From the IMG/VR virus record IMGVR_UViG_2526164688_000030: DNA of 11,137 nucleotides, one strand, 5' to 3'. Of this stretch, positions 3,969 to 9,498 are shown one piece after another (the first letter of the stretch is position 1; every line of letters starts with the position of its first letter). This DNA comes from a virus. Its lineage: Duplodnaviria; Heunggongvirae; Uroviricota; Caudoviricetes. Both the position numbers and the translations under genes were made by a program. The notes below the pieces were generated by a model. That model saw only the letters and a list, made by a program, of their open reading frames with translations. It did no database searches and was not told where the DNA came from.

Positions 3969-4470
3969 AATTCCATCCAGCTTTTTGTTGGTATTGCTGT
4001 CGATACGCAAGTTTGAAAGCAATTGCTTTTTCTATAAGTTCGTCAGTTTCACGATCCACTACGGCAGGATCAGCAAAAAGCAGTCCGGACTCCACCACAT
4101 CGCCATATTCTTTGTTTAACCCGGCGATCATGTACGTGATGCTTTTTCCGTCACTAATTTCACGATACAACCTGAAATCATTAATCCGGATAGCCTCCAT
4201 AATTGCAGGCACTAGCGCCGTGAACTTTTCACGCTTATCCCTGGTGTCGATAGCCTTCCAGCGTTCGAATATCTTCACTCGATTAACGCCAAGCGCTCGC
4301 TGATCAACCGCGCCACCTTCATCTGTGACACGCTGAACATCGATGTTCGGGCGCTCTTTCAAAGCCCAGAATGCTTCAGTGATTAATATCGTCGCCTGCT
4401 CCTGTGTCATTCCTGGTCGACATATCCAGGCATCCAGAGCCTCACGAGCCTGTTCAGGAGTGATTTTCAT
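3949..4470 (-). CDS. Hypothetical early-right protein (173 aa) in the cII/YdaT-like position between the Cro-like gene and the replication gene
   Basis: ATG at 4470 with G-rich SD (GGGGCGG) ~7 nt upstream; overlaps the dicC-like stop by 17 nt and the replication gene start by 20 nt (translational coupling). No confident family recognition. Confidence 0.6.
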   Translation of the reverse strand: MKITPEQAREALDAWICRPGMTQEQATILITEAFWALKERPNIDVQRVTDEGGAVDQRALGVNRVKIFERWKAIDTRDKREKFTALVPAIMEAIRINDFRLYREISDGKSITYMIAGLNKEYGDVVESGLLFADPAVVDRETDELIEKAIAFKLAYRQQYQQKAGWNYEPSFC

Positions 4471-4681
4471 TGTTCAACCGCCCCGCCCGCTTCGTCTTAC
4501 GATATTCGTCATAAACCTTGGGATCATACAGAAGCTCCCCGCCAGATGCCTCCTGTAGACGCATCGCGCGACCTTCAGGAACCAGTATCCCCCAAGCAGC
4601 AACACTTGCCAGTCTCACTCCTGCGGCATTGGCAAGCTTTGTTTTGCTGCCAAAAAAAGTAATTGCGTCAACTTTAAGCAT
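4454..4681 (-). CDS. dicC: DicC-like Cro-type small DNA-binding regulator (75 aa)
   Basis: ATG at 4681 with strong SD (AGAGGGGG, 5-nt spacer); protein (MLKVDAITFFGSKTKLANAAGVRLASVAAWG...RLQEASGGELLYDPKVYDEYRKTKRAGRLNNENHS) closely resembles recalled E. coli Qin DicC; divergent from the dicA-like gene. Confidence 0.8.
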   Translation of the reverse strand: MLKVDAITFFGSKTKLANAAGVRLASVAAWGILVPEGRAMRLQEASGGELLYDPKVYDEYRKTKRAGRLNNENHS

Positions 4682-4694
4682 CAAAGCCCCCTCT

Positions 4695-4761: not shown

Positions 4762-5169
4762 ATGGATACAAGAACCCTAGGCCAGCGAGTTCTGGCGCGA
4801 CGAAAAGAATTACGCTTAACACAACGAGAAGCTGCGCGCCTCGCTGGAGTTGCTCACGTCACAATTTCACAATGGGAAAGAGACGAAACCCAGCCAGTCG
4901 GAAAACGATTGTTTGCTTTAGCGGATGCTCTGAAGTGCTCACCTACATGGCTAATGTTTGGTGACGAAGACAAGGCACCAGTGCCTGCACAAGAACTTCA
5001 TGTGGAAACAGAGCTAACTCCCAACCACAAAGAATTGATCGAATTATTCGATGCTCTTCCATCTTCCGAGCAGGAAGCCTTGCTGTCTGAAATGCGCGCA
5101 AGAGTAGAAAACTTCAACAAACTCTTCGAAGAAATGCTTAAAGCGCGTAAAAATAAATCAATAAAATAA
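4762..5169 (+). CDS. dicA: DicA-like HTH (XRE/P22 C2-type) prophage repressor, 135 aa
   Basis: N-terminal HTH (LRLTQREAARLAGVAHVTISQWERDETQPVGKRLFALADALKCSPTWLMFGDEDK) and C-terminal block (ELIELFDALPSSEQEALLSEMRARVENFNKLFEEMLKAR) closely resemble recalled K-12 DicA; divergent from the Cro-like gene. Confidence 0.85.
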   Translation: MDTRTLGQRVLARRKELRLTQREAARLAGVAHVTISQWERDETQPVGKRLFALADALKCSPTWLMFGDEDKAPVPAQELHVETELTPNHKELIELFDALPSSEQEALLSEMRARVENFNKLFEEMLKARKNKSIK

Positions 5170-5337: not shown

Positions 5338-5493
5338 ATGGATACTATCGATCTTGGCAACAGCGAATCTCTGGTATGTGGCGTGTTCCCCAACCAGGAC
5401 GGCACGTTCACCGCGATGACGTATACCAAAAGCAAAACGTTTAAAACCGAAAATGGTGCCCGTCGCTGGCTGGAAAGAAACTCAGGTGAGTGA
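5338..5493 (+). CDS. ydfA: YdfA/YdaF-like small protein (51 aa) of the dicB operon
   Basis: ATG 5338 with purine-rich SD (GAGGT); protein MDTIDLGNSESLVCGVFPNQDGTFTAMTYTKSKTFKTENGARRWLERNSGE matches recalled Qin YdfA; stop TGA at 5491-5493. Confidence 0.75.
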   Translation: MDTIDLGNSESLVCGVFPNQDGTFTAMTYTKSKTFKTENGARRWLERNSGE

Positions 5494-5494
5494 T

Positions 5495-6070
5495 ATGGAT
5501 TTCGACACAATCATGGAAAAGGCTTACGAAGAATACTTCGAAGGCCTTGCCGAAGGCGAAGAAGCTCTCAGCTTCAGTGAGTTTAAACAGGCACTCAGAA
5601 TAAGAATGTGCTCTCACAATGACGCGGAGCACAAATATGAGAAGCAAAATCAGACCGCAGAAAATTTTGTTCTGGAACCCGGAGAAACGCTTTTCAAAAT
5701 TCCCGTTACGTGCCCCATTTGCGGTTTTACATCAGAAGAACTTGACGACTCCTGTAACAATCAGGAAACAACCAAGTATGTCGAAGATGATACCGAGTGC
5801 GCACGAAGAACGATTATATCCACGAGTCCAAACTCCAGGGCCAATAAATCTCACTTTGAGAGGGTGATTAATCCACTCCCCCAAACCAATAAAAAAGATG
5901 CCGGAGGACAAAAAACCCAATGGAACAACGGGATATCTGTCAAAAAAAGACGTTCCATTAAAGACAAACAACGCAGCGCCAACAACTGTAAGCGCTTTAT
6001 ACCAGTAATCAATTTTCATGTTCTTAAGCGGATTTATTGGTGGTTGCGACATTGCTTAATGAATCCTTAA
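5495..6070 (+). CDS. ydfB: YdfB-like protein; N-terminus MDFDTIMEKAYEEYFEGLAEGEEALSFSEFKQAL; ORF stays open for 191 codons but the C-terminal extent is uncertain
   Basis: ATG 5495 is 1 nt after the ydfA stop with SD CAGGTGAG. N-terminal ~35 aa match recalled YdfB. The K/R/N-rich 3' half and rare codons suggest the distal part may be an antisense shadow of the minus-strand ORF 5732..6052. Confidence 0.45.
   Translation: MDFDTIMEKAYEEYFEGLAEGEEALSFSEFKQALRIRMCSHNDAEHKYEKQNQTAENFVLEPGETLFKIPVTCPICGFTSEELDDSCNNQETTKYVEDDTECARRTIISTSPNSRANKSHFERVINPLPQTNKKDAGGQKTQWNNGISVKKRRSIKDKQRSANNCKRFIPVINFHVLKRIYWWLRHCLMNP
5732..6052 (-). CDS. Candidate small membrane protein (106 aa, about three predicted TM segments) antisense to the 3' half of the ydfB-like ORF
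   Basis: ATG at 6052; translation has three hydrophobic stretches (ALTVVGAALFVF, VVPLGFLSSGIFFIGLG, ALGIIFDILGCFLIVTGVV). Only a weak SD (GGA 13 nt upstream). Cannot be resolved against the overlapping plus-strand ORF from sequence alone. Confidence 0.3.
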   Translation of the reverse strand: MSQPPINPLKNMKIDYWYKALTVVGAALFVFNGTSFFDRYPVVPLGFLSSGIFFIGLGEWINHPLKVRFIGPGVWTRGYNRSSCALGIIFDILGCFLIVTGVVKFF

Positions 6071-6091
6071 AACTGTGGTGATTTTAAGGAT
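6063..6091. other. Perfect 10-bp inverted repeat ATCCTTAAAA-(ctgtggtga)-TTTTAAGGAT
   Basis: Arms 6063-6072 / 6082-6091; overlaps the stop of the plus ORF and lies just upstream of the minus-strand ORF start; candidate RNA hairpin or palindromic binding site. Confidence 0.35.
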
Positions 6092-6329
6092 ACCACCTCG
6101 CCTGACGTGGTTAAAAGCAGGCACACAACACGAAAGCGCACGGCGAAGTTCGTCTCACTGTACGGTGTCGTTAAATTTAATTCGACCGTGCGCTTCCGGT
6201 TGTGGCAACCCGCAAAATGGCGCGGCGGTAAGTATGGCGGGGTTATTCCTTCCCCGTTGAGGACACCGGGTTGTCAGGTTGACCATACGCTTAAGTGACA
6301 ACCCCGCTGCAACGCCCTCTGTTATCAAT

Positions 6330-6387
6330 TTTCTGGTGACGTTTGGCGGTATCAGTTTTACTCCGTGACTGCTCTGCCGCCGTTTTT
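6330..6387 (+). ncRNA. dicF: DicF small regulatory RNA (Hfq-dependent sRNA processed from the dicB-operon transcript; ftsZ antisense regulator)
   Basis: TTTCTGGTGACGTTTGGCGGTATCAGTTTTACTCCGTGACTGCTCTGCCGCCGTTTTT matches recalled E. coli DicF almost base-for-base, with 3' GC-rich stem plus U-tract, in the expected position between ydfB/C-like and dicB. Confidence 0.8.
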
Positions 6388-6556
6388 AAAGTGAATTTTG
6401 TTATGCGGTGAATGCGGCTAAGCGCACGCGGAACAGTTAAAACCAAAAACAGTGTTATGGGTGGATTCTCTGTATCCGACGTTAATTGTTAACTGGTTAA
6501 CGTCACCTGGAGGCACCAGGCACTGCATCACAAAATTTATTGTTGAGGACGCGATA

Positions 6557-7026: not shown

Positions 7027-9498
7027 ATGAGTAAAGTCTTTATTTGCGCCGCTATTCCTGACGAACTGGCAACAAGGGAAGAAGGCGCTGTGGCTGTAGC
7101 CACAGCCATTGAAGCTGGCGACGAACGCCGTGCTCGAGCAAAATTTCACTGGCAATTCCTGGAACATTATCCGGCTGCTCAGGACTGCGCTTATAAATTT
7201 ATTGTCTGCGAGGATAAACCTGGCATACCCCGCCCTGCCCTCGATTCATGGGATGCTGAATATATGCAGGAAAACCGCTGGGATGAGGAGTCTGCTTCTT
7301 TTGTCCCGAATGAGACTGAATCCGATCCGATGAACGTCACTTTTGACAAGCTGGCCCCTGAAGTACAGAACGCTGTCATGGTTAAGTTCGACACATGTGA
7401 AAACATCACCGTTGATATGGTTATTAGCGCACAGGAATTGTTGCAGGAAGACATGGCAACATTCGACGGACATATCGTTGAAGCGTTGATGAAAATGCCA
7501 GAAGTTAACGCCATGTATCCGGAGCTTAAGTTGCACGCCATTGGGTGGGTTAAGCATAAATGTATTCCTGGTGCTAAATGGCCCGAAATTCAGGCAGAGA
7601 TGCGCATCTGGAAAAAACGTCGCGAAGGTGAACGCAAGGAAACCGGAAAATACACGTCTGTTGTTGATCTCGCACGCGCCAGAGCCAATCAACCGTACAC
7701 TGAAAATTCAACAGGAAAAATCAGCCCGGTCATTGCTGCCATTCATCGCGAATACAAGCAGACATGGAAAACACTGGATGACGAACTGGCCTACGCTCTC
7801 TGGCCTGGTGATGTGGATGCCGGAAACATTGACGGCAGCATCCATCGCTGGGCAAAAAAAGAAGTTATCGACAACGACCGCGAAGACTGGAAGCGTATCT
7901 CGGCATCAATGCGCAAACAGCCTGATGCCCTTCGCTACGACCGCCAGACTATTTTTGGCCTTGTCCGTGAGCGTCCGATCGACATTCACAAAGATCCCGT
8001 AGCACTGAACAAATATATCTGCGAATACCTGACGACAAAGGGCGTGTTTGAGAATGAAGAAACAGACCTGGGCACTGTTGATGTTCTCCAGTCATCAGAA
8101 ACACAAACTGATGCAGTGGAAACTGAGGTATCTGATATCCCAAAAAATGAAACCGCGCCGGAAGCTGAACCATCTGTAGAGCGTGAGGGGCCGTTCTATT
8201 TCCTCTTCGCAGATAAGGACGGAGAAAAATACGGTCGCGCAAACAAACTTTCTGGTCTGGATAAGGCACTGGCTGCTGGCGCCACTGAAATCACAAAAGA
8301 AGAATATTTTGCCCGAAAAAATGGCACATACACGGGCTTACCGCAAAATGTAGATACCGCTGAAGATTCAGAACAACCAGAGCCGATAAAAGTTACCGCT
8401 GACGAAGTAAACAAAATTATGCAGGCAGCCAATATCAGCCAGCCTGACGCCGATAAGTTGCTTGCTGCCTCTCGCGGAGAATTTGTTGCAGGGATTAGCG
8501 ACCCGAATGATCCGAAATGGGTTAAGGGGATCCAGACCCGCGATTCTGTAAACCAGAACCAGCATGAATCGGAACGGAACTACCAAAAAGCGGAACAAAA
8601 CAGCCCAAATGCGTTACAAAACGAGCCAGAAACGAAACAGCCTGAACCAGTGGCGCAACAGGAAGTGGAAAAAGTCTGCACCGCCTGCGGTCAGACCGGC
8701 GGCGGCAACTGCCCTGATTGTGGCGCGGTGATGGGCGACGCAACATACCAGGAAACATTCGATGAAGAGTATCAGGTTGAAGTTCAGGAAGATGATCCGG
8801 AGAAAATGGAAGGCGCTGAACATCCACACAAGGAGAACACTGGCGGCAATCAGCATCATGCCAGCGATAATGAAACTGGCGAGACGGCAGATCACTCAAT
8901 TAAGGTGAACGGTCATCAAGAAATCACATCCACCAGCAGGACGTGTGACCATCTAATGATCGACCTTGAAACCATGGGAAAAAATCCTGATGCCCCGATC
9001 ATCTCAATAGGTGCAATATTTTTCGATCCGCAAACCGGAGATATGGGACCGGAATTTAGTAAGACTATCGATCTGGAAACTGCTGGCGGAGTCATTGATC
9101 GGGACACCATTAAATGGTGGCTTAAGCAATCACGCGAAGCGCAATCTGCCATTATGACCGATGAAATCCCGTTAGATGATGCACTGTTACAATTGCGGGA
9201 ATTTATCGACGAAAACTCCGGTGAATTTTTTGTTCAGGTCTGGGGAAATGGAGCCAACTTCGACAACACGATTTTGCGCCGTTCATACGAACGGCAGGGG
9301 ATCCCCTGCCCGTGGCGTTACTACAACGATCGCGATGTACGCACAATCGTTGAGCTGGGGAAAGCCATAGACTTCGATGCCAGAACGGCTATTCCATTCG
9401 AAGGTGAGCGCCATAATGCACTTGATGACGCCCGTTACCAGGCAAAATACGTTTCAGTTATCTGGCAAAAACTGATCCCGAGTCAGGCTGATTCTTAA
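7027..9498 (+). CDS. ydfE: Full-length YdfE-like large early-left protein (823 aa): N-terminal domain of unknown function, central Cys4 zinc ribbon (CTACGQTGGGNCPDCG), C-terminal DnaQ-like DEDDh 3'-5' exonuclease domain
   Basis: ATG 7027 with SD GAGGT. The three DEDDh motifs are read directly: MIDLETMG (Exo I), WGNGANFDNTIL (Exo II), HNALDDARYQ (Exo III). The N-terminus matches the recalled K-12 YdfE fragment. Sits where lambdoid phages carry recombination/exonuclease genes, upstream of xis-int. Confidence 0.85.
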   Translation: MSKVFICAAIPDELATREEGAVAVATAIEAGDERRARAKFHWQFLEHYPAAQDCAYKFIVCEDKPGIPRPALDSWDAEYMQENRWDEESASFVPNETESDPMNVTFDKLAPEVQNAVMVKFDTCENITVDMVISAQELLQEDMATFDGHIVEALMKMPEVNAMYPELKLHAIGWVKHKCIPGAKWPEIQAEMRIWKKRREGERKETGKYTSVVDLARARANQPYTENSTGKISPVIAAIHREYKQTWKTLDDELAYALWPGDVDAGNIDGSIHRWAKKEVIDNDREDWKRISASMRKQPDALRYDRQTIFGLVRERPIDIHKDPVALNKYICEYLTTKGVFENEETDLGTVDVLQSSETQTDAVETEVSDIPKNETAPEAEPSVEREGPFYFLFADKDGEKYGRANKLSGLDKALAAGATEITKEEYFARKNGTYTGLPQNVDTAEDSEQPEPIKVTADEVNKIMQAANISQPDADKLLAASRGEFVAGISDPNDPKWVKGIQTRDSVNQNQHESERNYQKAEQNSPNALQNEPETKQPEPVAQQEVEKVCTACGQTGGGNCPDCGAVMGDATYQETFDEEYQVEVQEDDPEKMEGAEHPHKENTGGNQHHASDNETGETADHSIKVNGHQEITSTSRTCDHLMIDLETMGKNPDAPIISIGAIFFDPQTGDMGPEFSKTIDLETAGGVIDRDTIKWWLKQSREAQSAIMTDEIPLDDALLQLREFIDENSGEFFVQVWGNGANFDNTILRRSYERQGIPCPWRYYNDRDVRTIVELGKAIDFDARTAIPFEGERHNALDDARYQAKYVSVIWQKLIPSQADS

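Follow-up and report, generated by a model that had tools for sequence, protein, structure and literature searches.

A putative codon-aligned antisense gene pair at the sieB position of lambdoid prophages

Main

Few long, fully overlapping antisense genes of bacteria and their phages are backed by good evolutionary evidence. Antisense-overlapping exclusion genes beside a repressor have one earlier report, from Pseudomonas phage Fc02, in which gene 10 and olg1 lie next to the repressor gene and each has exclusion activity (PMC9936078). In enterohaemorrhagic Escherichia coli (EHEC), antisense overlapping genes have been proposed from ribosome profiling (bioRxiv 2020.11.18.388249), including ano (PMC5960689) and three genes in strain EDL933 (PMC9927249). 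Here we analyse an 11,137-nucleotide (nt) stretch of Caudoviricetes DNA (IMG/VR virus record IMGVR_UViG_2526164688_000030), referred to throughout as the window, in which an open reading frame (ORF) on the plus strand runs through the whole of a membrane-protein gene on the minus strand. We consider it reasonably probable that the two form a completely overlapping, codon-aligned antisense gene pair that moves as one module among lambdoid phages, and both strands are probably translated. What appears to be new is the comparative evidence for a complete codon-aligned overlap kept across many diverged phage lineages.

The pair resembles Fc02 gene 10 and olg1 as a set of antisense-overlapping genes in a lysis–lysogeny control region, one on the repressor side and one early lytic (PMC9936078). 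It differs in belonging to an unrelated phage group and encoding unrelated proteins, and in that Fc02 was characterized by RNA sequencing and phenotypes whereas the evidence here is comparative. Like the EHEC antisense genes and 'shadow' ORFs, it has a long ORF on the strand opposite a real gene and includes a partner that annotation missed. Unlike those cases, a whole gene is overlapped here, codon-aligned and retained across lineages whose proteins are 35–60% identical, and the evidence is stop avoidance relative to matched controls rather than ribosome profiling of one strain. This avoidance can be measured across many diverged lineages, and phages HannyBb and mEp390, which carry the pair, are culturable. 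The first 34 codons of the plus ORF and the upstream ydfA–ydfB junction are homologous to ydfB of the K-12 Qin prophage, but the YdfB C-terminus and ydfC are replaced here by the overlapping module. The elements of the pair in the window are:

5732–6052, minus strand: membrane-protein gene, 106 residues with three transmembrane helices, supported by the ORF, homologues, codon-position pattern and AlphaFold model
5495–6070, plus strand: plus ORF, 191 residues, from ATG at 5495 to the TAA stop at 6068–6070
5495–5596, plus strand: YdfB-homologous N-terminus, 34 codons, from megablast and a remark of the Prokaryotic Genome Annotation Pipeline (PGAP)
5606–6070, plus strand: probable native plus ORF, 154 residues beginning MCSHND..., from counterparts in other phages
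5675–5731, plus strand: conserved non-overlapping motif EPGETLFKIPVTCPICGFT with a single Cys-Pro-x-Cys-Gly knuckle, from the codon alignment

A membrane-protein gene on the minus strand

An initial annotation, made from the sequence alone, had pointed to a 106-residue minus-strand ORF with three hydrophobic segments. These segments lie at about residues 17–37, 41–58 and 85–106, and AlphaFold (AF2) returns a confident model (mean predicted local distance difference test (pLDDT) score 86.8) with helices at residues 17–32, 42–62 and 85–105 and a beta-hairpin at 65–79. Among 5.8 billion proteins we found 60 relatives from several phyla, many of them metagenomic and of about 100 residues, with identity down to 34%; searching 1.84 billion cluster representatives with a profile gave 487 matches at E ≤ 1e-3, of which 218 reach E ≤ 1e-10, nearly all 95–115 residues long. 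Identity to the window protein is 51% in Yersinia and 38–41% in Herminiimonas and Reinekea (34–58% for homologues overall), and the homologue in Burkholderia phage Bcep176 is annotated as gp33. The family carries the motifs DYWYK and GLGEWINHPL, and residues W17, Y18, K19, G56, G58, E59, W60, N62, H63 and P64 are invariant in its alignments.

A codon-position comparison, proposed in the initial annotation, favours the minus frame. Nucleotide differences from close homologues fall at minus codon positions 1, 2 and 3 in the ratios 11/7/36 and 8/10/23, and single-nucleotide polymorphism (SNP) sites among 33 natural alleles in the ratio 11/6/19; for distant homologues the count is 38/22/54, with position 3 near saturation. 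All but one of the 33 alleles keep the minus ORF intact. Together these comparisons indicate that the minus ORF is a genuine gene under purifying selection and that its protein family is widespread, unnamed and, by sequence, new. The protein has no match in Pfam, PHROGs, NCBIfam or PADLOC, the gene is unannotated in both RefSeq records inspected, and a literature search found nothing on the protein, the ORF pair or the leader described below. The family is hidden from Pfam, PHROGs, NCBIfam and defence catalogues alike, one reason being that gene callers choose the longer complementary ORF.

Most gene callers, PHROGs family phrog_35040 and several phage annotations in effect assume that only the plus ORF is a gene and that the minus ORF is an artefact. 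The plus ORF is longer and is the usual call, matching phrog_35040 and being reported by gene callers in 1798 sequences against 141 + 137, and it is the annotated ORF in HannyBb and mEp390. However, the minus protein is 34–50% identical in genomes whose plus frame contains 3–17 stops, substitutions gather at minus third positions, the minus ORF yields a confident membrane-protein model and plus-ORF homologues are limited to Escherichia. These comparative data refute the assumption, to which we assign almost no probability.

Two known classes of small membrane protein were considered and rejected. A class I holin does not fit a protein that ends in hydrophobic ...VVKFF without a charged tail, encoded in the immunity and early region rather than the lysis region and lacking any Pfam or PHROG holin match. 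A type I toxin–antitoxin system, with a toxin of less than about 60 residues and one transmembrane segment and a small antisense RNA transcribed from a promoter of its own, does not fit a 106-residue protein with three helices and a hairpin, with no small-RNA family match and with a long early-operon ORF as its antisense partner.

Several further features of the family were seen. At codon 12 of the minus gene (6019–6017), an in-frame Met is conserved in the enterobacterial genes (NMKIDYWYK) and is Leu in other homologues. In Herminiimonas aquatilis, a non-phage homologue (L010 6001–7179) is followed by a DUF5677 gene. Also among the non-phage homologues (loci L028, L029 and L030) is an Arcobacter metagenome-assembled genome in which three copies, identical to one another, lie far apart on the chromosome, a pattern suggestive of a mobile element. 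Decayed membrane genes, frameshifted or shortened, occur in a Shigella flexneri chromosome (L039 3989–4234) and in viral contigs L252 and L335. Published annotations pick the ORF opposite the cassette gene in mEp390 (gp39, L004 3956–4411), HannyBb (CDS0038, L006 3983–4600) and SfV (orf33, L369 3811–4107); mEp390 gp39 is labelled 'similar to Bcep176 gp33', yet gp33 is the membrane protein of the other strand.

Antisense stop codons are absent from nearly all phage-borne lineages

Over the whole membrane gene the plus and minus frames are codon-for-codon complementary, and a stop in the plus frame can therefore arise only where the minus gene has TTA, CTA or TCA. None of these codons occurs in the window gene or its enterobacterial prophage homologues, even though the proteins are only 35–60% identical; the same genes use TTG 22 times and TTA never, and TCA for none of their 26 TCN codons. 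A general shunning of A-ending or rare codons was rejected as the cause, because A-ending codons make up about 23% of those for Val, Ala, Gly, Thr and Pro in these genes and ATA is used too.

As a matched control we used 29 other gene families that stand behind the same leader in the same slot. In these families TTA and CTA together account for 27.7% of Leu codons and TCA for 17.9% of Ser codons, and antisense stops are wholly missing from one family of the 29, a gene of 66 codons. Given control codon usage, the probability of finding no stop is 0.0015–0.047 per lineage, and none is found in 14 of 15 phage-borne lineages (mutual similarity below about 75%). Antisense stops number 3–17 in chromosomal and other homologues outside the phage-borne group and 7–19 in sieB of P22 and Rac. 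Within the 33 natural alleles, the plus frame is open in 29.

The plus ORF as a fusion with a conserved N-terminal motif

The 191-codon open plus frame that the initial annotation traced from a YdfB-like start exists as described, and a longer version of 205 residues starts at 5453. Nucleotide homology to K-12 Qin stops at about 5592–5595 (in a megablast of positions 5400–6200, K-12 and many other genomes cover only query positions 1–193/196), a boundary that, from the alignments, marks a recombination junction. The plus ORF is thus an in-frame fusion of 34 YdfB codons to the 154-codon ORF that accompanies the membrane gene, and counterpart ORFs in other phages have 150–156 residues and start near the equivalent of ATG 5606. 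Full-length 42-residue YdfB was rejected as the identity of the plus ORF, as homology is limited to the first 34 codons; PGAP calls it either 'ydfB, missing C-terminus' or a 191-residue hypothetical protein. At the other end, the plus stop falls 16–18 nt beyond the start codon of the membrane gene, and such an end recurs consistently in relatives.

Directly before the overlap, the window and the loci L007, L014 and L015 share the motif xPGExLFxIPVxCP[IV]CGF, and a relative occurs in Roseateles. In a codon alignment of the window, L007, L014, L015 and L019, the motif codons differ at plus wobble positions (CCC/CCT/CCA/CCG, ATT/ATC/ATA and GGT/GGA/GGG). A second N-terminal group, of the mEp390 type, carries FFExL...PGSVxID....VxLxGW; one lineage has both motifs, and related plus N-terminal motifs extend across about 20 lineages. 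SNP sites within 5495–5731 distribute over plus codon positions as 7/4/11, and the plus N-terminus has a weak match to a rubredoxin knuckle (E=0.12). The distal half of the ORF is rich in lysine, arginine and asparagine, as the initial annotation stated (combined share 0.29, compared with 0.13 for the first 79 residues), whereas its accompanying claim of rare codons is borne out weakly (13/112 low-usage codons distally, against 7/79).

From its fusion origin, its conserved non-overlapping N-terminus, its open frame and the joint movement of the two ORFs, the comparative data indicate that the plus ORF is more than a mere shadow of the minus gene. The initial annotation had regarded the two ORFs as mutually exclusive, which is probably wrong given the conserved non-overlapping domain and the stop-free frame of 14 of the 15 lineages. 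The alternative, in which the minus gene alone is functional and the plus ORF beyond about 5731 is a 'shadow' open by chance as the codon-aligned complement, we regard as improbable. It would account for a frame in the register that is most often open by chance, for a tail not clearly more conserved than the minus gene dictates and predicted to be unstructured, for the natural nonsense alleles and for the occasional treatment of the plus ORF by PGAP as a ydfB pseudogene. It sits poorly with lineages that have near-saturated third positions and yet lack stops, each at the low chance expectation given above and against one control family in 29, with an N-terminal domain conserved through wobble variation, and with an ORF end that falls consistently just beyond the start of the membrane gene.

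Several observations weigh against a functional plus frame. Identity of the overlapping tail is not clearly above the level that the minus gene imposes (simulation, p = 0.04–0.6, distant pairs), and no structure is predicted for the tail (mean pLDDT 46.6, from a shallow alignment). A nonsense SNP in 3 of the 33 alleles shortens the plus ORF to 101 or 133 residues while leaving the minus ORF intact, the plus frame of lineage L210 contains four stops, and that of L013 is closed by a TGA right after CPVC, just before the overlap. The division of homologues into 'phage-type' and 'other' was moreover drawn post hoc, with the data already seen. Because the tail shows no clear constraint beyond that of the minus gene and the nonsense alleles and the stops in L210 and L013 exist, selection on the plus frame is best described from these comparisons as real but not absolute, and as acting on openness rather than on sequence.

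A mobile module and a proposed role for the open frame

The pair is found antisense within the early-left operon in the window, L007, L008, L013, L014 and L015, and between cro and cII, in the early-right operon, in mEp390 and L221. In the latter two the plus-type ORF, annotated gp39, is co-oriented with the operon and stops 17 nt before cII. The membrane gene of these mEp390-type phages (L004 3939–3990; L221 2942–3001) starts about 50–60 nt from the divergent cII start. In lambda, a CII-activated establishment promoter sits at that spot near the cII start, and an establishment transcript could therefore begin with the mEp390-type membrane gene and continue, antisense to cro, into the gene for the repressor.

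Our preferred view is that the phage overrides its own membrane protein during lytic growth. In a lysogen the early operon would be repressed, in the window by the DicA-like repressor, and the membrane protein, expressed from its own leader, would serve the prophage in an accessory role. By analogy with sieB and because of its place in a variable-cassette slot, the likeliest such role is to exclude other phages or to defend against them. Once the prophage is induced, transcription of the early operon would cross the membrane gene antisense and ribosomes would translate the plus ORF through it. That translation would shield the early transcript both from Rho-dependent termination and from pairing with the membrane-gene mRNA, allowing polymerase to traverse the membrane gene together with its promoter and to reach the early genes beyond; between cro and cII, shielding by a spanning ORF would be essential. 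Rho and NusG are reported to terminate untranslated and antisense transcripts (PMC11551753) and to keep kilR of Rac silent (PMC5793797).

Avoidance of stops implies that ribosome transit, or the polar tail that results from it, matters. As the reason for the open frame we lean tentatively towards ribosome transit, hold a function of the plus-ORF protein to be quite possible and give other causes a smaller chance. The other cassettes (28 of 29) and sieB lack an open antisense frame, and the requirement must therefore be specific to this gene, which suggests either a switch-off by transcription through it or a plus-ORF protein that counters the membrane protein as Esc does SieB. For the same reason, anti-termination as a general property of the slot was rejected, the antisense frames of those 28 cassettes and of sieB being full of stops. 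Further points tell against the proposed mechanism: no exclusion or defence activity is known for the family and PADLOC models are unmatched, Rho entry through C-richness is not supported, as the excess of C over G in the antisense RNA is unremarkable, and a sigma-70 consensus scan returned no promoter.

A related possibility is that the plus-ORF product is itself a functional partner, such as a self-immunity factor or antidote in the manner of Esc produced early in the lytic cycle, with the Cys knuckle and the polar tail neutralizing the membrane protein. Retention of the open frame would then reflect a need for the tail as protein. The open frame is particular to this cassette rather than slot-wide, both ORFs move together between early-left and early-right operons and the N-terminal domain is conserved, all of which an antidote would explain. 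There are also precedents: P22 requires Esc to escape its own SieB, according to the record annotation, and the antisense-overlapping Fc02 genes beside the repressor each have exclusion activity (PMC9936078). The tail, however, shows no clear constraint at the amino-acid level and no predicted structure, the second Cys pair of a zinc ribbon is not conserved and shortened alleles persist in natural populations, and we consider an antidote rather unlikely. Each residue of the plus tail is encoded by the complement of the matching membrane-protein codon, giving an inverted hydropathy profile. A bolder version, which we think very unlikely, is that the tail and the membrane protein are a sense–antisense protein pair in which the tail binds and neutralizes the membrane protein at the lytic switch. 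This would amount to a self-immunity device on the opposite strand of the gene that it controls and would explain why the frame is open only here.

The sieB slot and its leader

In every enterobacterial early-left context retrieved, be it a Qin-type prophage, a Rac-type prophage carrying KilR and RecE/RecT, a phage that has an S24 repressor together with P22-Cro, or Yersinia, the membrane gene adjoins the repressor and is directed against the early-left operon. The initial annotation had described sieB of Rac-type prophages as a gene transcribed against the early-left flow at about this position, and the layouts of P22 and of Rac (K-12 annotation) agree: sieB, which lambda-type phages also have there, has the same position and orientation near the immunity region, shares a conserved upstream element with the membrane gene and likewise encodes a small prophage-carried membrane protein. 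SieB systems combine abortive exclusion of superinfecting phage with self-protection through Esc/sas. Kinship with SieB itself did not hold up. PF14163 is matched by SieB of P22 (4e-29) and Rac (1.5e-31) but not by the 106-residue protein, hhalign of the family profile with P22 SieB gives a probability of 0.25%, SieB has 162–192 residues compared with 106 and three transmembrane helices here, and sieB antisense frames are crowded with stops whereas that of the membrane gene is open. By position and leader, the membrane gene is in our classification a sieB-slot cassette and not a SieB homologue. The leader elements in the window are:

6063–6091: perfect 10-bp inverted repeat, the variable hairpin of the sieB-slot leader, with arms at 6063–6072 and 6082–6091
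6089–6126, minus strand: conserved leader core, GTGCCTG-CTTTTAA-CCAC-G-TCAGGC-GAG-GTGGTATC

The perfect inverted repeat reported initially is present, its 10-nt arms 100% complementary and 9 nt apart, but it does not lie exactly between the plus stop and the minus start as had been stated: the stop (6068–6070) falls within the left arm, and the repeat lies 11 nt away from the minus start (6052). On the minus strand the 3′ arm of the hairpin holds the Shine–Dalgarno sequence of the membrane gene, AAGGA (6068–6064). Read on the strand of the gene, the leader consensus is GCCTG-(U-rich)-CCAC-N-CAGGC-N3-4-GTGGTATC, followed by the hairpin with the Shine–Dalgarno sequence, and the ATG stands 55–58 nt after CCAC. 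The core holds two interleaved complementary pairs, GCCTG/CAGGC and CCAC/GTGG, which could form a pseudoknot.

About 80 nt upstream of the minus start are more conserved than the coding sequence, and this leader (window 6053–6126; loci L251–L368) precedes at least 29 unrelated families of small ORFs at constant distance in enterobacterial phage contigs, as found by a scan of viral contigs with the exact pattern that returned at least 120 stretches. The core is also directly 5′ of sieB in P22-like phages (blastn) and in Rac. The sieB promoter and RNA start of P22 have been mapped downstream of the core, behind an apparent duplicated hairpin. The outer pair covaries, being GCCCGG/CCGGGC in Rac and GCCGGG/CCCGGC in L240, and the hairpin stems change yet still pair in about 40 distinct variants, including CCUUAAAA/UUUUAAGG, CUUGG/CCAAG and CCUCUG/CGAGAGG. 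The hairpin was recovered by folding each sequence separately; RNAalifold on a MAFFT alignment missed it, as the stems are not alignable. When fold energies and G–U pairs of the two strands were compared, 32 of 39 stems proved more stable on the early-operon strand, but the loops of that strand are G/U-rich and the comparison is confounded. Rfam has no family for the leader even at E ≤ 10, DicF being its sole match in the window, and a single weak site resembling a terminator occurs on the minus strand (5555–5536, within the ydfB part). The SfV annotation labels the leader hairpin of that phage a putative rho-independent terminator.

This distribution indicates that the leader marks a hotspot of variable genes at the sieB position of enterobacterial prophages, and the families behind it, at least 29, provide a candidate list of exclusion, defence and counter-defence genes. 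In another E. coli prophage (NZ_CP041304.1, L003 1603–2137) a different cassette occupies the same place, with annotated hypothetical ORFs of 121 residues on the plus strand and 66 residues on the minus strand whose ends overlap.

Genomic setting

The window as a whole represents the immunity and early-left region of an E. coli lambdoid prophage of the Qin/dicBF type. The isolated phage HannyBb carries the same DNA at 99–100% identity, and, at a coverage of at least 80%, 793 of 5426 complete E. coli genomes (about 15%) contain it. Other features of the window are:

4454–4684, minus strand: P22-Cro-like gene
4762–5169, plus strand: DicA-like helix-turn-helix repressor gene
3′ end at 5493: ydfA (DUF1391), followed by the ydfB-like start at 5495
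6331–6382: DicF small RNA (72.5 bits, Rfam)
downstream of DicF, in order: dicB, ydfD and a gene for an 823-residue exonuclease

The early-left 'exonuclease' (7027–9498) has a C-terminal Rv2179c-like 3′–5′ exoribonuclease domain (E=2e-67) as its sole domain, and strain 190 has a prophage that is identical apart from a frameshift in this gene (L001 4628–6801). Between the leader and DicF lie more inverted repeats, one within 6131–6198 with 13-nt arms (92% complementary) around a 16-nt palindrome and another within 6268–6304 with perfect 9-nt arms spaced 19 nt apart. In Rac the small RNA KilS (L371 2906–3003) lies between the sieB leader and kilR, which corresponds to the place of DicF in the window, flanked by the leader and dicB. 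KilS and DicF have a matching stretch of 16 nt (6344–6359 in DicF), and window positions 6377–6541 share 79% identity with the sequence preceding kilR in Rac.

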